A stretch of 64,000 nucleotides of DNA from Patescibacteria group bacterium (GCA_041664445.1 JBAYKT010000005.1:7438-71437), one strand, 5' to 3'. Counted from the first letter of the stretch, positions 541 through 48,942 are shown. Notes: generated by a model not told the origin, from the letters alone. Made by a program: numbers and translations.

Positions 541-1071
541 TTATTTCTTCTCGCTGATGGCTTTTAAGACGCCAACAAAATTTCTTAAGTTGCCGGCTAA
601 AACATTAACGAAGCCGGAAATTGGCGCATTCATAGAACCGACCAACTTGGCATACAATTCTTGCTTGCTTGGTAATTTAGCTAAAGCCTCAACCTGTTCT
701 TTGGATAATAATTTATTTTCCAAAATACCGCCCAAAAAGATAATTTTATTCTCTTTTTCTTTATCCTTACGGAATTCGCCTAAAATCTTGGCTGGAGAAA
801 TTTCGTCTTCATAAGAGAAGATAGCGGCAATTTTTCCGTCAAAATCTCTGGCATTTAGACTTTCAACATTCTGATCCTTAAAAGCGATATTCATTAAGGT
901 CTTCTTGGCAACGTAATATTCGTTGTTTTCAGCAATCAATTTCGCGCGTAAATTTTCATTATCCTTAACCCCGAAGGCGTTAAAACCAGCGAAGATAACA
1001 GATTTTGATTTCTTAATTTTTTCGCTTAAATTGCGTAAAATTTCTTGTTTTTGAATCTTATTCTTTGGCAT
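541..1071 (-). CDS. rplJ: 50S ribosomal protein uL10
   Basis: 176 aa. Typical L10 N-terminus (KQEIL..L.EKIKKSKSVIFAGF.G..V.....LR) and the classical rplJ-rplL order. Confidence 0.9.
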   Translation of the reverse strand: MPKNKIQKQEILRNLSEKIKKSKSVIFAGFNAFGVKDNENLRAKLIAENNEYYVAKKTLMNIAFKDQNVESLNARDFDGKIAAIFSYEDEISPAKILGEFRKDKEKENKIIFLGGILENKLLSKEQVEALAKLPSKQELYAKLVGSMNAPISGFVNVLAGNLRNFVGVLKAISEKK

Positions 1072-1192
1072 ATAATAAAAAAATCTGTGGTACCACAGAA
1101 GTAAAAGCGCTTAAAGTAAGCGGATATTACCTCGGCAAGATTTACGGCCGAAGTGGCCACTTGCTGTCTGCGGTATCTTTAGTTATGCGTAT
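1072..1192 (-). promoter_or_regulatory. rplJ 5' leader with hairpins and an attenuator-like terminator (L10-leader candidate)
   Basis: About 120-nt transcribed leader between the promoter and the ATG. GGCC-ACUUC-GGCC hairpin nested in a GCAAG/CUUGC stem. CUGUGG-UA-CCACAG followed by AUUUUUUU just before the start codon. Confidence 0.45.
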
Positions 1193-2868: not shown

Positions 2869-5800
2869 TTAGTTAATCTCCAAAATCGGTTGGCCAATAT
2901 ATTTTAAAAGCTCTTTTAAAGTCTTAATATGAACCAATTCCCCGTTCTTCACGACGTAAATTTTAGGGTTGCCATGATGACGAACTAAAGTGCCGTCTAC
3001 ATACTTCTGAACTCCCAAAACCTGGGAATAAGCGGCAATCACGCCGTCGGTAACGACTATGGTTATCGCCCCTCTATATTTAAAGAGTTCCTTTAAATTA
3101 ACGATGTGTTTAATGGTGGTTTCACCAGTTACGACATAAATTTTGCCGTTAGTCTTGGAGCGTAATAAAGTGCCAATGGCATATTTTTGAACGCCTAAGA
3201 CCTGCTGTTGACCGCCATTGTTTTCTTTGGGATTAACATTTTCTCCAGTTCCATTATTTTCTGTAGAAGCCCCATTTGTACAAGCGCGAGATAAAGCAAT
3301 TTGTTGTTCGGTGTTTAAAGAACAACTGGCTGAAGAACGGCTTAAGATGGTTCTAATCTGAAAACCGTTAGTACAGGCACCCCAATCACCATAAACAACA
3401 GATGAACAAGTACTAGGCGCTGAACCGCCGCCGCCGCTACTAATTACGCTTTGTGTATAAGTAACGAAAGTAGAAAAATGTTTAGTATAAACAACTAAAT
3501 CACTGCCTACATCCATTTTACAGCTACCGCCATCTACAAAAACGTTGCCACCATTGATAGTTGTAGTGTTGGTATCTAAATCACAAATATCGGTAATTTC
3601 CGTAAATACGTTAGCCTGATTATACCAACCGATATGTTTTCCTGCCTGGTTAGAAAAGCTTAACTTTACAGCCTTGTCAAAAGTTAAATCGCTAACACTA
3701 GAACCAATAGCAATTGCGGAAGTAACGGTTGTGTTATATCCAGAAATAGTAACAGTTTTTGTAGTGGCTGTAGGGTTAGATACTGTTCCATCCCAAGATA
3801 AATTTCCAGTTATGGTTGTGCCTGATTGAATATCGGAAGTAACAGTAACGCCGCCATCAGAAGTAGTCTGGGTATTGTCAGATGAGGTTGTAATACTATT
3901 ATTATCACCATCAGAAAGTAATGTCATTGTCTCATTGACATACCAAGGACTAGCAGTTACATAATCAGACACTAAACCACTAGCTGGGCCGGAATCTGCG
4001 CCCCAATAATTCTTGGAAGAGTCAAGAATGTGATCTTGATCAAGATTGCGGATACTAACTCCAATAAGGCTGTTATGATTAAAAGTAATTTGAGAAGCAT
4101 CAGCGTATATTTCCGGGCTATCACACCAGTCAATACTGAAACCATATTGATCCGTCCCGGAATCGTTTGTAACATTAGAAATCTTATTTCCCGTTATTAT
4201 AACTGCTTGTGGAACATTCGTACTATTGCAAGTCGGTGTTATTTCTATCGCATGGGACCATCCAGCGGAAGTAATTTTGTCAATTTTATTATTTAAGACA
4301 CTAATACCACTGACATCTCCCTGAATCATAACCCCATAAGAACCTTTGGTCTGAGAATTAGTAATATTACTAAAAATATTATTTTCTAAATTTACATTGC
4401 TAACAACAGGACCGGCACTATATATATGGACGCCTTTAATAGTTGCGCCTCCATAAGTCGGGTTGGTAATTGTTAAACCTTTGACGGCGACCTCTCCCGA
4501 ACTAATAAGAATCTTGCCAGTAATTACAGCCGCAGCTACTGGCGTCCCAGTATTAGGATTAATGCCAGCATTAGGACCAATTAAATTAACTGGATGGGAA
4601 ATTGTAAGATTTTCGGTATATTCACCCGCTCCAATATCAATAGTATCCGCCGTTATAGCTGAACTGGCATCAATTGCCGCTTGGATACTTGAATAAATAG
4701 TATTATTCATGATAATAGAATCAGTCATCGCTTTGTTAGCCCAGATATAATAATTATTATAACCAGCAACGGTATATTTAACATATTCATCGCCGACGCT
4801 AACTGCTACTGTTGCTGTTTCAGAAACATGAGCGCCATCTGACCAAACCTGCGTATTCTCTGATAAGTTATTAGCCCCGGTAAGTGTAAAACCGGATGGC
4901 ACTGTCACCCCTGACCCCGGGTCAACATTTACTGCCCCCCAAGCATTTCCACTTGTATTAAAATTGGAAGCGGTAACGCTTGAACCGTTAACTATCATCG
5001 CGGCCCCATTGGTGTTATTAGAGATAGTAACCGTATCTAAAATAACATCATTAGCAAGATAAGTATTAATACCATGAAGATTAGTTCCTTCGTGGCCATT
5101 AATCGTAATATTTTTAACTGTTACACCGTCATGATGAATTCCTAATGCCGAGTTATTAGTGTTGTCAGTCTTAGTAAAATTCGGTGACAAAGTATAACTG
5201 TTGCCATCGATGGTTAAAGCCGCGTCTACATTTATCTGAGAGGTAGTCGTTATGTCGCCACCCAATAAAACTATGCCACCATCGCCAACATATTCTATGC
5301 TGCTTAATTGATCGGCGGTCGAAGCTAGAAGATATTTATAAACAGTTCCAGAAGACCAATTACTATGAACATAGTTATTACTACAGCTAACGTAAGTATT
5401 ACCTAAAGCTAATGATTTTTCCACCGCTGGGTCAAGATCTACCACAGCAGAGCTGCCGGTCATACTGAACCTTGATAAACTTATTCCTTCAGCAATTTGC
5501 AAAGCGCTTGATGACCAATCATTAGTGTCAGAACTGAAACCATTAAAGGTATTACCAGAAACACTATAATTGATACTTCCGTCACCATTAGGCCAGATGG
5601 TTAGACCATTCCCTACTCCGCCGCTGGCAGCTAGAGCTTCCGGATTTGGCAATTCAAATACATTGTTGGTAATAGTTGCATTTTTGGCGATAACGTCAAT
5701 TCCAGTTTTTAATGGACCATTGCCGCCGCCACGGGTATATATTTTTAAGCCATTGATAGTGACGCCATCGGTTTTAATAATAAACGAACCATATACTTCC

Positions 5801-6108
5801 GCTCCGGAAGCGCCTTCTATAGTTAAAGGTTCAGTAATTTCATAAGCAGTATAATTAGAAACGTCGCCAATAATACCATTTATAAAAATAGTATCGCCGC
5901 TGGAAGCGCTATTAAGAGCTTCCTGGATTGTCGCACAATTTGGCTCAGTTACTGTGCAAGCTGGACTAACCAGGCTACCATCAACATTCCAAGTTGTTGG
6001 CAGTGCTACAATGGCCTTAACGTTCCCTGCAAATACAAAAAAACCGCCAAACAAAAAAGCTGCGATTATGAGTAAAGCAAGGTTTTTATTTTTCAATAAA
6101 TACCTCAT
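2869..6108 (-). CDS. giant secreted parallel beta-helix (PbH1-repeat) surface protein with two C-terminal anchor-like repeats
   Basis: 1079 aa. Signal peptide (..FVFAGNVKA). Many N/G/T-rich beta-helix turns (ITINGHEGTNLHGINTY..). C-terminal tandem LGVQKY..GTL.R....KIYVV..G....HI..LKEL.KY repeats. Confidence 0.7.
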   Translation of the reverse strand: MRYLLKNKNLALLIIAAFLFGGFFVFAGNVKAIVALPTTWNVDGSLVSPACTVTEPNCATIQEALNSASSGDTIFINGIIGDVSNYTAYEITEPLTIEGASGAEVYGSFIIKTDGVTINGLKIYTRGGGNGPLKTGIDVIAKNATITNNVFELPNPEALAASGGVGNGLTIWPNGDGSINYSVSGNTFNGFSSDTNDWSSSALQIAEGISLSRFSMTGSSAVVDLDPAVEKSLALGNTYVSCSNNYVHSNWSSGTVYKYLLASTADQLSSIEYVGDGGIVLLGGDITTTSQINVDAALTIDGNSYTLSPNFTKTDNTNNSALGIHHDGVTVKNITINGHEGTNLHGINTYLANDVILDTVTISNNTNGAAMIVNGSSVTASNFNTSGNAWGAVNVDPGSGVTVPSGFTLTGANNLSENTQVWSDGAHVSETATVAVSVGDEYVKYTVAGYNNYYIWANKAMTDSIIMNNTIYSSIQAAIDASSAITADTIDIGAGEYTENLTISHPVNLIGPNAGINPNTGTPVAAAVITGKILISSGEVAVKGLTITNPTYGGATIKGVHIYSAGPVVSNVNLENNIFSNITNSQTKGSYGVMIQGDVSGISVLNNKIDKITSAGWSHAIEITPTCNSTNVPQAVIITGNKISNVTNDSGTDQYGFSIDWCDSPEIYADASQITFNHNSLIGVSIRNLDQDHILDSSKNYWGADSGPASGLVSDYVTASPWYVNETMTLLSDGDNNSITTSSDNTQTTSDGGVTVTSDIQSGTTITGNLSWDGTVSNPTATTKTVTISGYNTTVTSAIAIGSSVSDLTFDKAVKLSFSNQAGKHIGWYNQANVFTEITDICDLDTNTTTINGGNVFVDGGSCKMDVGSDLVVYTKHFSTFVTYTQSVISSGGGGSAPSTCSSVVYGDWGACTNGFQIRTILSRSSASCSLNTEQQIALSRACTNGASTENNGTGENVNPKENNGGQQQVLGVQKYAIGTLLRSKTNGKIYVVTGETTIKHIVNLKELFKYRGAITIVVTDGVIAAYSQVLGVQKYVDGTLVRHHGNPKIYVVKNGELVHIKTLKELLKYIGQPILEIN

Positions 6109-6240
6109 AATTTTTAAAAATTAATTAGCTTAAATATATATAAATTTTATTTTTAGTTTAATTATTATAACACAAACTTTTAGAATCGTAAATATTGTTA
6201 TCCAGAAAGCAGGAACAGCTTATCCACAGATAAAAAATGT

Positions 6241-9835: not shown

Positions 9836-11011
9836 TTAATATTTCCCCTTTGTCTTAGCTCTTAATCCCGCCTTCCGGCCGCGATTAGCAAAACGATGGG
9901 CCTCTTCGCGTAACTTTAATAAAGTAGCTTTAATATTTTCGGCGAGTTCGCGCTGTTCTTTTTTAGTCTTTACGCTAAAAACCAACTTATCGCCGCCGAA
10001 TTTAGAAATCCCAACCATCTGGGCACTAATATTTAATTTAGCCAGTTCACGCGTTAAAAAACTAATTTGCGGCGAACCACCATCAATCATAATTAAATCA
10101 GGGAGCGGCCATTCTAAATGCTTAAAGCGCCTAGTTAAAACTTCTAACAAAGCCCGTTCGTCATCGCCTCCGGGCGCGTCTTTGATTTTAAATAAACGGT
10201 ACTCAGAAGTATTAGCTTCCCCATTTTCAAAAACCACCATTGAACCATAGCTTTCCTTACCGGAGTGATGCGAGATATCATAGCCCTCAAGACGGCTTAT
10301 TTTTCTTTCATTTAAATCTTCATCGCGCGTTAAGAGCGAAACATCTTGCAAATGCTGGAGTGCTTTGGCTTGTTCGGGATTAGCTTTTTTAAGTTTAAGC
10401 ATTAAACGCTTTTTCTCGCCTTTTAGGAGCAGAATAATATTATCAATATTCTTTTTGTATTCACGGGCACTAATTTTGTCGGCGCAAGCTCCGGGACAAA
10501 GTCCAATTTGATAGTCAAAACAAGCCCGGCCGCTATTCGGCTTGCAAGTCCCATACGGAAAGATGCGACGAATTAAACGCAAGGCATTTTGTAAGAGATA
10601 ATATGATTGATAGGGGCCGAATACTTGAGCGGTTCCTGCGGGAAACTTTTTTAACTCATGCCCGCGGATAATAAGCGGACGCGTAAAATCTTTTTTTGGA
10701 ATGACAACATAAATAAAGGAACGGTCATCGCGGTCAACAATATTATATTTAGGCCAATATTTTTTAATATTAGTTGCCTCTAAAATTATGGCTTCCAGTA
10801 GAGTTTCGGTTTCTTCATAACGGATATTATGCGCCGCGGCCACCATTTCCGCGATGCGCGAGCTGATTCCTTTTTGAAAATATTGGCTTAGGCGGGCCTT
10901 TAAGCTCGTAGCCCGGCCGACATATAAAACTGTTCCCTTTTTATTCAACCAAAAATAGACCCCGGGCTTCTTGGGGGCGGATTTAGCAACGGTGGATAAA
11001 TCTCTTGACAT
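9836..11011 (-). CDS. uvrC: excinuclease ABC subunit C, shortened form (391 aa)
   Basis: GIY-YIG N-terminus (KPGVYFW..VLYVGRA.SL..RL.QY). Cys motif CFDYQIGLCPGAC. C-terminal endonuclease core RLEGYDISH..GSMVVF, DLIMIDGG..Q, LREEAHRFA. No HhH2 tail. Confidence 0.85.
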   Translation of the reverse strand: MSRDLSTVAKSAPKKPGVYFWLNKKGTVLYVGRATSLKARLSQYFQKGISSRIAEMVAAAHNIRYEETETLLEAIILEATNIKKYWPKYNIVDRDDRSFIYVVIPKKDFTRPLIIRGHELKKFPAGTAQVFGPYQSYYLLQNALRLIRRIFPYGTCKPNSGRACFDYQIGLCPGACADKISAREYKKNIDNIILLLKGEKKRLMLKLKKANPEQAKALQHLQDVSLLTRDEDLNERKISRLEGYDISHHSGKESYGSMVVFENGEANTSEYRLFKIKDAPGGDDERALLEVLTRRFKHLEWPLPDLIMIDGGSPQISFLTRELAKLNISAQMVGISKFGGDKLVFSVKTKKEQRELAENIKATLLKLREEAHRFANRGRKAGLRAKTKGKY

Positions 11012-11032
11012 AAAAATAAAAAGGATTAATAT
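11005..11032 (+). promoter_or_regulatory. consensus sigma70-type promoter firing antisense to the uvrA-uvrC transcript
   Basis: TTGACA-16 nt-TAATAT. Overlaps the first codons of uvrC on the other strand. Confidence 0.6.
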
Positions 11033-11038
11033 GCTTAA

Positions 11039-11309
11039 TATAGTTCGCCCACAAATAGTGGGTTTGCAAATTCAACAACCGGATAAAACCGGAAAATCGC
11101 TGCGACGACTTCGTGGAGGCATACTCGAGCAAGTTAATTCTTGCATTAATCGTAACGCCCTCCAAGCGACTCAAGTCAAGTAGCATTGCACCCTAGCAAC
11201 AAACGTCTGCTCACGAAAGTTGGGCATTAATGGTTATAAGGTTTCTTAATTAATGAAATTCTTGTTCAAATAACCAATCCTAAGACCGCTGTTGCTAGGG
11301 TCTTTTTTT
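11039..11309 (+). ncRNA. candidate ~270-nt structured RNA of unknown class, antisense to the uvrA-uvrC spacer
   Basis: Bounded by the promoter above and by AAGACC-N11-GGTCTT plus a T-run. Several stable hairpins, including an 11-bp long-range stem CCCTAGCAACA/TGTTGCTAGGG. No plausible ORF. Confidence 0.4.
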
Positions 11310-11324
11310 ATTTAAAAGACCAAA

Positions 11325-13841
11325 TTACTTTTTTAAATAAGGCTTTAAATACTTGCCAGTCTCCGATTCCGGTTCCCTAACAATATCTTCCGGCGCACCC
11401 GCGGCTACTAAGCGTCCGCCTTTTTCACCGCCATCGGGCCCTAAATCAATAATATAATCCATAGACTTAAGCATATGCATATTATGCTCAATAACTAACA
11501 CCGAATTCCCCTTCTCCACTAACTTATTCAAAACGGTAAGTAACATATCAATATCATAATAATGCAAACCGGTTGTCGGTTCATCCAATAAATACAGAGT
11601 ACGCTTGCCTAAGGTATGGGTTAGCTCTTTAGCAATTTTAATTCTCTGCGCCTCACCGCCGGATAAGGTGGTCGCGCTTTGGCCGATTTTAATATAACCC
11701 AAACCGACCGACTGTAAAACTTTTAATTTTTCGGTGATATAGTAATTGCCGTCAAAATGCTCAACTGCCTCATCAATCGTCATATCCAATACCTGGGCGA
11801 TGTTCTTATCTTTATATTTAACTTGCAGAGTTTCGCGATTAAATCTTTTACCACGGCAAACCTCACATTCCACTAAAACTGGAGGCAAAAAATGCATTTC
11901 AATTAAATTTGCACCTGCTCCTTCGCAAGCTTCACAGCGTCCGCCCGGACGATTAAAGGAAAAACGGCCAATACCATAACCGCGTTCTCTGGCTTCCGGT
12001 AAACCGGCAAAGAAATCGCGAATCGGCGTAAAGATACCGGTGTAAGTAGCGGGATTAGAGCGCGGAGTGCGGCCAATCGGCGATTGGTCAATCACAACTA
12101 CCTTGCTGATATAATCAGTGCCCTTAATTTCTTTAACATCTTCCATTTTGGCGCGACCACCGGGACGCGCTTTAATATGAGAAACGTTTTTATATAACAC
12201 ATCGTAAAGAAAGGATGACTTTCCACTCCCAGAAACACCGCTGATACCGACTAAGCGTCCGAGTGGGATTTCTACGGTGATATTTTTTAAATTATTAGCC
12301 GTCGCGCCGATAATCTTCAAGGAGCCGTGATTTTGCTCGCGTCTTTTATTAGGCAGGCTAATTTCTCGATGACCGTTTAAATATTGCAAAGTCAAGGACT
12401 TTTTGGTGGCCGTCTTATCTTTACCGTCCAAAAGTGCCTTAACCTCACCCGCGGCCATAACTTCACCGCCGTGAACACCAGCCAAAGGTCCTAAATCAAC
12501 CAAATAATCCGCTGCTAGAATGGTTTTTTCATCATGCTCCACAATAATTACCGTATTATCCTTATCGCGTAATTTTTTCAAAGTATCAATCAGTTTTTCA
12601 GTGTCGCGTTCGTGCAGGCCGATTGTCGGTTCATCAAGAACATACAAAGTTCTCGATAAATGGGAACTGATTTGTGAAGATAAACGGATGCGCTGAGCCT
12701 CACCACCGGATAAGGTATGGGCTTCACGCTCTAAACTTAAATAATCCAGACCGACTTTAAGCAAAAACTCCAAGCGGCTAATAATCTGGACAACCACGTT
12801 CTCCGCAATCGCCAGCTCCCGCTTGGTCATTTTTTCATAATAACTATTGAAAAACTTTAAGGTTTTATCAAGCGGCAACTTAGCGACTTCAGCAATATTC
12901 TTGTTAGCAACTCTAACGGACAAACCTTCCGGTTTTAAGCGTGCGCCCTTACAAGTCTCGCATTTTTCTTCGCCAAAAAAATTCTTTTTGCCTAGTCCCG
13001 CGCATTCCGGACAAGCCCCAGCCGGCGAATTAAAAGAAAACAAGCGCGGCTCAACTTCCGGAAAAGAAAAATTATCATTCGGGCAAGTCCAATTGGAAGA
13101 TAGCAGAAATTCCTGTTTTTCATATTTAGCGACCACTAAGCCCTTGCTGTATTCCATGGCTTTTTCTACCGCTTCAAATAAGCGGGATTGGTCATCAAGC
13201 ATTACTTTATCAATCACAACATCAATATCATGATTTTGTTTGGAGGCTAACTTTATTTTTTCTCGGAGCGAGTGAATTTTTCCGTCTACCCGTGCTTCCG
13301 CATAGCCTAAACCTAAATAATTGTATAAAAGCTGATAATATTCACCTTTACGATTGCGAATAACCGGCGACATAATAGTCACATATTTTTCCTGAGAATC
13401 TTGGCCGCGGTTAATAATAATGTCCACCATTTCTTCGGTCGTCAGTTTTTCAATTTTATGGCCGCAAAGCGGACAATGCACATCGCCTACGCGCGCGTAT
13501 AAAACCCGTAAATAATCATAGATGTCGGTTAAAGTCCCGACCGTGGACCGCGGATTATGAGATAAGGCTTTTTGATCAATAGCAATTGCCGGTGCTAAAC
13601 CGATAATTTCATCCACATCGGCCGGTTTTTTCTGGCCCAAGAATTGACGCATATAGGGGGATAAGGATTCAACATATTGTCTTTGCCCTTCGGCAAAAAT
13701 CGTATCAAAAGCCAGCGACGATTTGCCACTTCCCGAAACGCCGGAAATTACCGTTAATTTATTATGCGGTATTTCCAAATTAATATTTTTCAAATTATGC
13801 ATCCGCGCGCCGCGGATTATCATTTTTCCTTTATCTGACAT
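11325..13841 (-). CDS. uvrA: excinuclease ABC subunit A, form lacking the insertion domain (838 aa)
   Basis: Two ABC modules (GVSGSGKSS twice; LSGGEAQR twice) and zinc modules. Only 9 residues between CAGLG and CETCKGARL. Confidence 0.95.
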   Translation of the reverse strand: MSDKGKMIIRGARMHNLKNINLEIPHNKLTVISGVSGSGKSSLAFDTIFAEGQRQYVESLSPYMRQFLGQKKPADVDEIIGLAPAIAIDQKALSHNPRSTVGTLTDIYDYLRVLYARVGDVHCPLCGHKIEKLTTEEMVDIIINRGQDSQEKYVTIMSPVIRNRKGEYYQLLYNYLGLGYAEARVDGKIHSLREKIKLASKQNHDIDVVIDKVMLDDQSRLFEAVEKAMEYSKGLVVAKYEKQEFLLSSNWTCPNDNFSFPEVEPRLFSFNSPAGACPECAGLGKKNFFGEEKCETCKGARLKPEGLSVRVANKNIAEVAKLPLDKTLKFFNSYYEKMTKRELAIAENVVVQIISRLEFLLKVGLDYLSLEREAHTLSGGEAQRIRLSSQISSHLSRTLYVLDEPTIGLHERDTEKLIDTLKKLRDKDNTVIIVEHDEKTILAADYLVDLGPLAGVHGGEVMAAGEVKALLDGKDKTATKKSLTLQYLNGHREISLPNKRREQNHGSLKIIGATANNLKNITVEIPLGRLVGISGVSGSGKSSFLYDVLYKNVSHIKARPGGRAKMEDVKEIKGTDYISKVVVIDQSPIGRTPRSNPATYTGIFTPIRDFFAGLPEARERGYGIGRFSFNRPGGRCEACEGAGANLIEMHFLPPVLVECEVCRGKRFNRETLQVKYKDKNIAQVLDMTIDEAVEHFDGNYYITEKLKVLQSVGLGYIKIGQSATTLSGGEAQRIKIAKELTHTLGKRTLYLLDEPTTGLHYYDIDMLLTVLNKLVEKGNSVLVIEHNMHMLKSMDYIIDLGPDGGEKGGRLVAAGAPEDIVREPESETGKYLKPYLKK

Positions 13842-30456: not shown

Positions 30457-30928
30457 AAATAATAGTTAATTACTCCCAAACGTCTAAACAATAGTAGTTT
30501 AAACGATTCAAGAATAATGATTGTCCAATTTTGGCCTACTCTCTTTTCTTCCCCGCTCTATTTTTGATAAATCAGTCGGAATCCCGCTCCGCCAACCTGT
30601 TTAAAGCTTAAGGCGAAGGCCAGCCGATCTCTATAAATAAAGTTCTGCCAGCCGAGCGCGTGTTGCTGCAGGCTGGAGAAAAGCTTAACCGATTTACCAA
30701 TCATTGATTGGAGTTTCAAAGGTTTGAGCTAAATTGGATATAAGTAAATTTGTAAGGGACAAACCACTCCTTGCGGAGTTCGACCTTGATTTGGTTCGCC
30801 AGTCCGTTTTAACGCGGACTTATTAATTTATCTCGCTAGGACGTCCGTGATAGGATGATACTTCCTCCGGTCAGGATCAGCCGCTTGAGAGAGATAAACT
30901 AATAAGCACGCGCTAGTGCTTTGTATTT
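30457..30928 (-). other. 472-bp GC-enriched structured spacer / long leader upstream of the surface-layer-like gene
   Basis: No ORF of 60 aa or more. About 45% G+C by hand count over 30541..30900. Multiple stable hairpins. See findings. Confidence 0.4.
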
Positions 30929-34485: not shown

Positions 34486-34562
34486 TGGTGGTCGCTAGTG
34501 GACTCGAACCACTGGCCTCCGCGATGTGAACGCGGCGCTCTAACCAACTGAGCCAAGCGACC
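34486..34562 (-). tRNA. tRNA-Val (anticodon CAC), CCA encoded
   Basis: Cloverleaf folded by hand: acceptor GGTCGCT/AGCGACC, anticodon stem CCGCG/CGCGG, loop TTCACAT, T-arm AGTGG-TTCGAGT-CCACT. Confidence 0.9.
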
Positions 34563-34570
34563 GTTCTGAT

Positions 34571-34657
34571 TGGTGCCCAGAGGGGGATTTGAACCCCCAC
34601 AGGATTGCTCCTACAGCGTTCTGAACACTGCGTGTCTACCAATTTCACCATCTGGGC
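34571..34657 (-). tRNA. tRNA-Leu (anticodon CAG), long variable arm, CCA encoded
   Basis: Acceptor GCCCAGA/TCTGGGC, loop TTCAGAA, variable arm TAGGAGCAATCCTGT, T-arm GGGGG-TTCAAAT-CCCCC. Confidence 0.9.
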
Positions 34658-48797: not shown

Positions 48798-48886
48798 CTA
48801 TATCATATTTATCTAAACTTGTCAATAATATAACAAAAAATAGACTAATACTAGTCTATTTAATGTAATTGCTCGGGGATAGGGAT
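48798..48886. repeat. repeat copy D (overlaps the genuine 3' end of tRNA-Gln)
   Basis: See copy C. Constant offset of 645 bp. Confidence 0.85.
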
Positions 48887-48942
48887 TCGAACCCCAATAG
48901 CCAGGACCAGAACCTGGAGTCCTACCGTTAGACGATCCCCGA
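48872..48942 (-). tRNA. tRNA-Gln (anticodon CTG), CCA not encoded
   Basis: Acceptor TCGGGGA/TCCCCGA (U1-A72), anticodon stem CCAGG/CCTGG, loop TTCTGGT, T-arm TGGGG-TTCGAAT-CCCTA. Confidence 0.85.

Follow-up and report, generated by a model that had tools for sequence, protein, structure and literature searches.

In Staphylococcus aureus (menE-menC/MW1733) and in the excludons of Listeria, a gene in antisense orientation is reportedly nested in, or overlaps, an operon. The logic of such noncontiguous operons and excludons, as outlined in a review (PMC7154746), is one of interference and duplex formation. Here we describe a locus with a comparable arrangement in a Patescibacteria group bacterium: within a 64,000-nt stretch of its DNA (GCA_041664445.1, JBAYKT010000005.1:7438-71437; hereafter the window), a structured RNA of ~270 nt is predicted on the plus strand of the spacer between uvrA and uvrC, both of which are encoded on the minus strand. 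We consider it highly probable that positions 11005-11309 (+) hold a genuine conserved structured RNA gene. By the comparisons below, the RNA is a previously undescribed family of Falkowbacteria-like Patescibacteria that matches no Rfam 15 family, and the novelty is that of a new RNA family and not of a new kind of system.

As in noncontiguous operons and excludons, a unit on the opposite strand lies inside co-directional genes, which form a tight operon in relatives, and a read-through transcript would be fully complementary to it; this likeness predicts transcriptional interference and double-strand-specific processing. Unlike in those systems, what is nested here is neither a protein gene nor a long antisense transcript but the gene of a short, highly structured noncoding RNA (ncRNA) with a strong terminator of its own, predicted from sequence and free of overlap with the coding regions on either side. 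A second comparison is with orphan structured ncRNA families held in Rfam, such as raiA, OLE, ROOL and other motifs of Weinberg and Breaker, with which the RNA shares a covarying conserved fold, conserved loop nucleotides, variable arms and a narrow phylogenetic range; it departs from them in its fixed antisense position in a DNA-repair cluster, its DnaA-box-like promoter element and its occurrence, so far, in Falkowbacteria-like Patescibacteria only. 6S RNA (RF00013), whose sequence is poorly conserved between phyla, is likewise stand-alone, with a consensus-like promoter (from which abundance would follow) and a rod-like domain interrupted by an asymmetric internal loop, but the RNA described here has no match to the 6S model, ends that leave the rod open, a rod about half as long and, in addition, 5′ hairpins and a terminator domain at the 3′ end. 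Finally, the Listeria B12 riboswitch with AspocR is said to be a riboswitch-controlled antisense RNA. The order of structured element, terminator and then a gene in antisense orientation is the same here, whereas there is no known aptamer or conserved expression platform and the terminators are strong and apparently constitutive.

A large part of bacterial diversity falls within the Patescibacteria (the candidate phyla radiation). Almost none of them has been cultured, and long non-coding spacers are seldom found in their ~1-Mb genomes. We searched the literature on this group for small RNAs (sRNAs), structured RNAs and 6S RNA and came upon nothing relevant, nor upon any report of a regulatory RNA among its members. 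A conserved RNA of defined fold, behind a consensus-like promoter and long kept in a DNA-repair cluster, would make RNA-based regulation in these bacteria open to concrete tests and would illustrate how a structured sRNA can be nested, in antisense, within an operon in nature. The family would enter RNA databases, many metagenome-assembled genomes could be annotated with it, and the spacer would no longer be treated as empty.

Signals, fold and covariation of the predicted RNA

Loci around UvrC homologues were collected from 80 genome and 80 metagenome sequences, together with 8 contigs of close relatives. The order uvrA then uvrC is near-universal among these loci, the length of the spacer is variable, and the 116 distinct spacers comprise 22 of less than 100 nt (several with overlapping genes), 63 of 100-800 nt and 31 that are longer. 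The initial annotation of the window had proposed a plus-strand structured RNA of ~270 nt, bounded by a promoter and a terminator and antisense within the spacer, and this core claim is supported by fold scores, conserved signals and compensatory changes. The plus-strand fold has an energy of -82.4 kcal/mol (z = -5.55, with none of 200 dinucleotide shuffles as good), compared with z = -2.64 for the minus strand of the same interval. Relatives have the same bias, with a mean z of -4.17 on the RNA strand versus -2.84 on the opposite one and the lower value on the RNA strand in 23 of 27 cases.

The near-perfect promoter reported earlier, TTGACA-16-TAATAT overlapping the first uvrC codons, is present at 11005-11032 (+), where the ATG of uvrC, read from the minus strand, shares bases with the -35 hexamer. 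A lax scan gave 4 promoter sites against 3.4 expected in 1.3 kb, so that the match taken alone is not significant; the exact form TTGACA-N16-18-TAnnnT occurs at 11 sites in the window, where 3.1 would be expected. Conservation is more informative, as exact matches to this form lie on the antisense strand in 52 of the 63 distinct spacers of 100-800 nt but on the sense strand in just one, and an extended -10 element (TGnTAAGCT) is frequent among the promoters of the RNA family defined below as class 1. On the RNA strand, 51/63 spacers have five or more consecutive T at the equivalent 3′ end, compared with 14/63 in the sense control, and relatives carry clean terminators of stem plus U-run whose sequences are unrelated between lineages. 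Both parts expected of a stand-alone sRNA gene, a sigma-70-type promoter on the RNA strand and a 3′ stem with a U tract, are therefore present in the window and kept in relatives. The N-terminal codons of uvrC (MSRDLST) in the window lineage are, when read from the opposite strand, the -35 hexamer plus a DnaA-like box.

Class 1 consists of ~22 distinct sequences with a common plan, at UvrC identities to the window from 97% down to ~64% (the window, L001-L008, L012, L030, L033, L035, L064, L066, L076, L081, L104, L114, L161, L164 and L166). Sequence search alone misses this family, and nhmmer with the window RNA gave strong matches to L003 and L001 only. A covariance model built from L004, L006, L012, L064 and L066, with the window excluded (R1), finds the window at 11074-11188 (+) with 25.7 bits (E = 0.004 in 0.7 Mb) and also matches L081 (38.6 bits) and L104 (37.7 bits). 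A rebuilt model with the window in its training set (R2) scores the window at 68.4 bits and finds two members outside that set, L003 (44 bits) and L033 (30 bits); all R2 matches with E below ~0.05 lie in the spacer and antisense to uvrC, and nothing comparable was found elsewhere in the window or the loci. In an alignment of 11 sequences (A7), 90.9% of cells are paired and compensatory, both-sided changes are seen in 16 of 21 core pairs, values that 0 of 500 shuffles reach, while partners slid by 1-3 columns pair in 27-39% of cells. The RNA thus has the two properties looked for in a structured RNA family, namely recognition by a model that had not seen the query and compensated pairs in excess of controls. 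Core alignments made with MAFFT misplaced several members, and covariance-model alignments were used in their place; an automated search for the helix P1 was also dropped, since in roughly half of the members the alternative it chose was spurious, and the model alignment was combined with manual reading instead.

From 5′ to 3′, the class-1 plan begins with a TGTGGATAA box, the promoter, a variable small 5′ hairpin, hairpin A (a 4-5 bp stem) and an A-rich linker. It continues with P1, a small internal loop (often ACC/ACC), P2 (3-4 bp), an asymmetric A-rich loop and P3, and ends with a variable apical hairpin, an A/C-rich linker and the terminator. Hairpin A is the family signature: its stems vary as CCGG/CCGG, CUGG/CCAG, UCGG/CCGA, UCGA/UCGA, GCGG/CCGC, ACGA/UCGU and CGGG/CCCG, all with a RYWAAA loop, and in A7 100% of its cells are paired, with both-sided changes in 3 of 4 pairs. 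A second hairpin of this type is present in L001, L002, L007 and L166 (GCUGG-AUAACA-CCAGC in L002, GCCAG-AUACA-CUGGC in L007). The arms of P1 are equally diverse, with GCUGC/GCAGC, GCUGC/GUAGC (the window), GGCCGCA/UGUGGCU, GGUCGC/GCGACC, AAUCGC/GCGAUU, CCGC/GCGG, GCCGC/GCGGC, GGCCAC/GUGGCC, GACC/GGUC and GUCGC/GCGAC, and P3 has the consensus GGAGRGC/GCCYUCY. The 5′ hairpin is a peripheral element, with one compensatory variant (CCCAU/AUGGG in L003) and other small hairpins in its place in distant relatives. The initial annotation had named five helices and had suggested that the stems be followed through homologous spacers. Promoter, terminator and four of these helices (the CCGG hairpin, GGAGGC/GCCCUCC, CCCAC/GUGGG and the 11-bp stem) are indeed kept with compensatory changes, whereas the outer pairing of its '75-nt hairpin', CGCU/AGCG, was mis-assigned, the conserved closure being P1 plus P2.

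The 3′ domain of the window is closed by the 11-bp stem, and its inner hairpins differ in content between lineages. It is near-identical in the five closest relatives, where the RNAalifold consensus contains no double changes and only one-sided ones (UG-UA, AU-GU). Three further relatives (L002, L139 and L081) keep the closing stem with a U-A to C-G compensation (CCCCAGCAAC/GUUGCUGGG) around an unrelated insert, and the U tract follows directly; the long-range stem can therefore be regarded, in this lineage, as the terminator stem. The hairpin earlier proposed as terminator, AAGACC-N11-GGTCTT plus a U-run, is present at 11282-11309, although a terminator scan flagged a hairpin at 11299-11321 instead, since the 11-nt loop of AAGACC/GGUCUU exceeds the limits of the scan. 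The U7 tract ends 16 nt before the uvrA stop codon. Because the 3′ arm of the 11-bp stem shares 2 nt with the small terminator hairpin, two alternative folds can be drawn in the window, and this, along with a folded conserved core followed by a terminator and an antisense uvrA immediately downstream, might be taken to indicate a riboswitch-like element or attenuator whose terminator gates antisense transcription into uvrA. We regard such a role as extremely unlikely. The terminators are strong (U7-U9) and unrelated between lineages, no conserved anti-terminator or other alternative pairing was seen by eye, an unstructured A/C-rich stretch links the core to the terminator, the gene downstream is in antisense orientation, and no Rfam riboswitch model matches.

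Searches against Rfam 15 (4227 families) gave no match in the spacer when the whole window was scanned at the gathering threshold, none in the spacers of 16 relatives at the same threshold, and merely four noise matches, all on the terminator region, at E<=10 over 10900-11420 (521 nt); ARAGORN found no tmRNA. These results agree with the earlier failure to match the RNA to tmRNA, RNase P, signal recognition particle (SRP) RNA or 6S RNA, and reading by eye gave no RNase P P4 motif (GAGGAAAGUCC), no SRP GNRA, helix-8 or GGAA motif and no tmRNA T-arm or CCA motif. A universal RNA that has diverged beyond recognition by Rfam models in the candidate phyla radiation, most plausibly 6S RNA, would nonetheless fit the strong promoter, the lack of any annotated 6S or other housekeeping RNA in the window, a literature search that found nothing joining 'candidate phyla radiation' with '6S RNA', and the asymmetric A-rich internal loop between P2 and P3 (~7 nt in the 5′ strand, ~13 nt in the 3′ strand), which loosely recalls the central bubble. 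This identity is very unlikely, however, as the models for 6S, tmRNA, RNase P and SRP RNA remain unmatched even at the permissive E-value, the P4 consensus and the SRP motifs are absent, and the architecture differs: the 5′ and 3′ ends do not pair as a closing stem, the 5′ hairpins, 86-nt rod and 3′ domain are separate, and the rod, of ~20-30 bp, is roughly half as long as 6S RNA.

Coding capacity offers no better account of the spacer. The initial annotation saw no credible open reading frame (ORF) in the interval, which agrees with our finding that the two ORFs of 67-70 codons (Table 1) have no Pfam match and are unconserved. The longest antisense-strand ORFs with ATG starts have 0-35 codons in class-1 relatives (59 in L066), and with neither a conserved ORF or frame nor a Pfam match in class 1, the pattern is not that of a small protein gene or type I toxin. 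That the spacer is simply expanded and its signals due to chance, or that it encodes a small protein, we find hardly credible. The chance-level count of the local promoter scan and the ORFs on both strands would suit these readings, but promoter, terminator and compensated helices are kept across relatives whose UvrC is ~64% identical, and hairpin A falls in differing reading frames in different members, with indels doing the same. Small hydrophobic ORFs after GUUCUUU in L013, L023 and L083 were considered as coding or type I toxin candidates and rejected, being unconserved in the other members read. GUUCUUU itself, found in the 5′ part of many spacer RNAs, was also rejected as a 5′ untranslated region or translation signal (14 occurrences would be expected in the window and 22 are found, most of them within genes).

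Some considerations weigh against a plus-strand RNA gene of this description. A7 was fitted to the model and its sequences are related, so the independence of the compensatory changes is overstated, and the E-values are rough because the calibration was short. The transcript ends are predicted and the gene was called from its sequence. Core G-U and A-C cells in the model alignment are equal (7 vs 7) and uninformative for strand; therefore, the strand assignment rests on promoter, terminator, z-scores and the 3′ domain. The equality of these cells would also suit a conserved structure of the sense (minus) strand, as an intercistronic element of the uvrA-uvrC mRNA in processing or translation control, with the plus-strand promoter and terminator incidental. 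Watson-Crick helices fold either way, and the minus-strand z-scores of the window and of the relatives are themselves negative. Even so, we judge this highly improbable given the asymmetry of promoters (52 vs 1) and 3′ T-runs (51 vs 14), the lower plus-strand z in 23/27 cases, and pairs that would read as C-A mismatches if the minus strand were the folded one: several G-U pairs, with UG-UA substitutions, in the 3′ domain, and further G-U pairs in P1 of L001 (GGCCGCA/UGUGGCU) and of the window.

Position in the repair cluster and possible modes of action

The 22 distinct relatives in which uvrA and uvrC abut or overlap indicate that the two genes form an ancestral operon. Longer spacers hold sense-strand genes, namely an EamA-like ORF of ~286 aa beside uvrA (assigned by Pfam in L166) and an Ogt/MGMT-like ORF of ~98-108 aa beside uvrC (recognised by its PCHRV motif alone), and the order in many relatives (L033, L030, L014, L050, L166 and others) is uvrA, EamA-like ORF, antisense RNA, Ogt/MGMT-like ORF, uvrC. 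The RNA gene is always antisense and occupies the interval bounded by the stop of uvrA or eamA, whichever lies upstream on the sense strand, and by the start of ogt or uvrC, whichever lies downstream. It is kept in L166 (UvrC 95% identical), where eamA instead of uvrA lies upstream. The predicted antisense transcription unit is, by this comparison, a persistent resident of the uvrA-(eamA)-(ogt)-uvrC repair cluster. Absence of the spacer from otherwise syntenic genomes had been named at the outset as an observation that would speak against the RNA, and it is seen in part: 22 of the 116 distinct spacers are shorter than 100 nt and have no RNA, while many others keep it, even at a UvrC identity of ~64%.

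Further spacers (L013, L023, L038, L044, L055, L062, L068, L083 and others), here class 2, have an antisense promoter-terminator unit and a good fold but could not be aligned to class 1. Their 5′ domain is larger, a GUUCUUUG motif recurs among them, and a covarying stem is peculiar to them (GAGGGC/GCCCUC vs GGGCGC/GCGCC in L013, L083 and L023), while they share GUUCUUU and stems of the GGAGGGC/GCCCUCC type with class 1. In a few relatives the antisense unit of the spacer contains an ORF, such as one of 88 aa in L054 (on the minus strand), with a hydrophobic N-terminus resembling a signal peptide, and one of 132 aa in L073, instead of or beside the RNA.

The best overall explanation, and in our view a moderately probable one, is a stand-alone structured ncRNA gene of ~270 nt with a cis-antisense mode of action. 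What is seen of such an arrangement is the opposite orientation, the nesting and the abutting or overlapping uvrA-uvrC of relatives; co-transcription of the two genes is a prediction. A scan of the minus strand of the spacer found no sigma-70-like promoter and no terminator, and because of this and of the abutting genes in relatives, uvrC probably depends on read-through from uvrA. The read-through mRNA would contain the full complement of the RNA, as the initial annotation had pointed out, and collision with it or pairing to it follows from the geometry only. Strong convergent transcription, together with duplex formation with an abundant folded antisense RNA, would then uncouple uvrC (and ogt) from uvrA or dampen their expression relative to it, and the conserved fold would serve the stability of the RNA and probably provide a protein-binding surface. 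A position-dependent role is favoured by the observation that spacers with different-looking RNAs still hold an antisense unit. That cis-antisense action is the main role of the RNA we propose only tentatively.

A purely cis-acting RNA is harder to reconcile with several features of the locus. A fold with conserved loops has been selected, though neither interference nor duplex formation needs one; the RNA does not overlap the coding sequence of uvrA or uvrC; the nucleotide-excision-repair operons of 22 distinct relatives do without it; and eamA, not uvrA, lies upstream in L166. Given the selected fold and loops, the lack of coding overlap and the relatives without the RNA, a trans-acting, protein-binding role is therefore nearly as likely. 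Such an RNA, acting in a ribonucleoprotein or as a sponge, would owe its place between uvrA and uvrC to inherited synteny, its loops would be binding sites, and its variable arms would be tolerated decoration like those of 6S, Y and SRP RNAs. The compensated core and those of its unpaired nucleotides that stay invariant (RYWAAA in the hairpin loop, the 3x3 loop ACC/ACC, and two segments, AAAACCAGG and GAUCGCC) are in line with this, as are the second hairpin of the hairpin-A type in some members, which suggests repeated binding sites, the near-consensus promoter (partly with an extended -10) and strong terminators typical of abundant stable RNAs, and the swapping of peripheral domains between lineages while the core is kept. 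Yet no partner protein was identified or found co-located, ~1.1 Mb of related sequence contained no copy of the RNA beyond the repair cluster, the locus in 22 distinct relatives lacks it, and its divergence is fast for a housekeeping RNA, with nhmmer reaching the closest relatives only. On this balance a trans-acting RNA is possible but somewhat unlikely.

The initial annotation also had the transcript covering the translation-initiation region of uvrC, and this part fared poorly, as the predicted RNA start lies ~28 nt beyond the uvrC ATG and a Shine-Dalgarno (SD)-like motif within 20 nt upstream occurs in only 5 of the 38 window ORFs of at least 200 codons, the start regions being A/U-rich instead. 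This suggests that translation initiation in this organism is largely SD-independent.

A further possibility concerns the control of the RNA promoter. A TGTGGATAA-type box lies 4-7 nt upstream of the -35 hexamer (14-16 nt from start to start) in ~20 class-1 relatives, and this spacing persists even in members in which the DNA around the box is non-coding and varies in other respects. The 9-mer is TGTGGATAA in most relatives and GGTGGATAA in the window, and it occurs with at most one mismatch 25 times in the window, where 14 would be expected. The DnaA-box consensus of Escherichia coli is TTATCCACA, and a 9-mer matching it at a conserved position relative to the promoter is what a DnaA-regulated promoter would have. 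Binding is putative and drawn from this match, and we treat DnaA control of the RNA promoter as a lead and not as a finding; if true, the link would join replication control to the expression of repair genes in minimal genomes. A riboregulator set by DnaA through the TGTGGATAA box, with a core that binds a cellular factor and couples replication or DNA-damage status to the repair and ogt cluster, or else an RNA that stands in functionally for a missing housekeeping RNA (6S, for instance) in these reduced genomes, is an improbable extension of these observations. An origin of replication (oriC) at the locus was considered and rejected, as there are merely one or two DnaA-like boxes per locus. 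Elsewhere in the window, two DnaA-box-like 9-mers, TGTGGATAA and TCTGGATAA, are spaced by 13 nt at 6198-6228 (-), upstream of a promoter-like TTTACG-17-TATAAT and of an ORF of 1079 aa (2869-6108, -) without a Pfam match.

Flanking genes and other features of the window

The coordinates of the RNA gene, its parts and its neighbours are collected in Table 1. The closest genome matches of UvrC are JAEHGX010000001 (97%) and the complete chromosome CP066698.1 (94%), and from the UvrC homologues the window lineage is assigned to Candidatus Falkowbacteria (Patescibacteria). The Pfam matches of this UvrC include no UVR or helix-hairpin-helix family. The spacer between the two genes had been called unusually long and rich in G+C, and both descriptions hold: its 313 nt rank fifth among ~59 gaps of the window (median 69 nt), and its G+C content is 0.38 overall and 0.43-0.45 at the centre, compared with 0.20-0.35 in most other spacers of the window.

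Table 1 Features of the uvrA-uvrC spacer, the predicted RNA and the flanking genes, in window positions
Feature	Position	Strand	Description
uvrC	9836-11011	-	391 aa, short form; GIY-YIG and UvrC RNase H-like domains (Pfam)
ORF	10971-11183	+	67-70 codons; no Pfam match; not conserved in relatives
ORF	10983-11186	-	67-70 codons; no Pfam match; not conserved in relatives
DnaA-box-like 9-mer	10991-10999	+	GGTGGATAA; 5 nt upstream of -35; inside uvrC codons 5-7
Sigma-70-type promoter	11005-11032	+	-35 TTGACA (11005-11010), 16-nt spacer, -10 TAATAT (11027-11032); 10/12 matches
Predicted transcript	11039-11309	+	~270 nt; start placed ~7 nt past -10; end in U7 tract
5′ hairpin	11047-11063	+	(G)CCCAC-AAAUA-GUGGG(U), with CCCAC/GUGGG at 11048-11062; in minimum free energy (MFE) fold; variable peripheral element
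Hairpin A	11079-11092	+	CCGG-AUAAAA-CCGG; family signature; loop consensus RYWAAA
Core rod	11099-11184	+	86 nt; P1-P3 and variable apical hairpin
P1	11099-11103 / 11180-11184	+	GCUGC/GUAGC; family structure
P2	11107-11110 / 11174-11177	+	GACU/AGUC; family structure
P3	11115-11120 / 11157-11163	+	GGAGGC/GCCCUCC; family structure
Apical hairpin	11129-11144	+	GCAAG/CUUGC; variable
3′ domain	11191-11300	+	closed by 11-bp stem CCCUAGCAACA (11191-11201) / UGUUGCUAGGG (11290-11300); MFE and RNAalifold
Terminator region	11282-11309	+	AAGACC-N11-GGUCUU (11282-11287 / 11299-11304) or long-range stem, then U7 (11303-11309); sequence reading
uvrA	11325-13841	-	838 aa; convergent with RNA gene; Pfam-confirmed

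Other RNA features of the window include an L10 leader (RF00557, 55 bits) at 1069-1191 (-), upstream of rplJ (541-1071, -), and the genes for tRNA-Val(cac), tRNA-Leu(cag) and tRNA-Gln(ctg), with coordinates 34486-34657 and 48871-48942 (-). The second-longest gap in the window, 472 nt at 30457-30928 (-), lies between two minus-strand ORFs and has a G+C content of 0.42. Its minus strand folds with z = -4.16 over 30500-30915 and has no Rfam match at E<=5, and the gap holds a hairpin, GUCCG-CGUUAAAA-CGGAC, similar to hairpin A. This gap may hold another structured RNA or a long structured leader.

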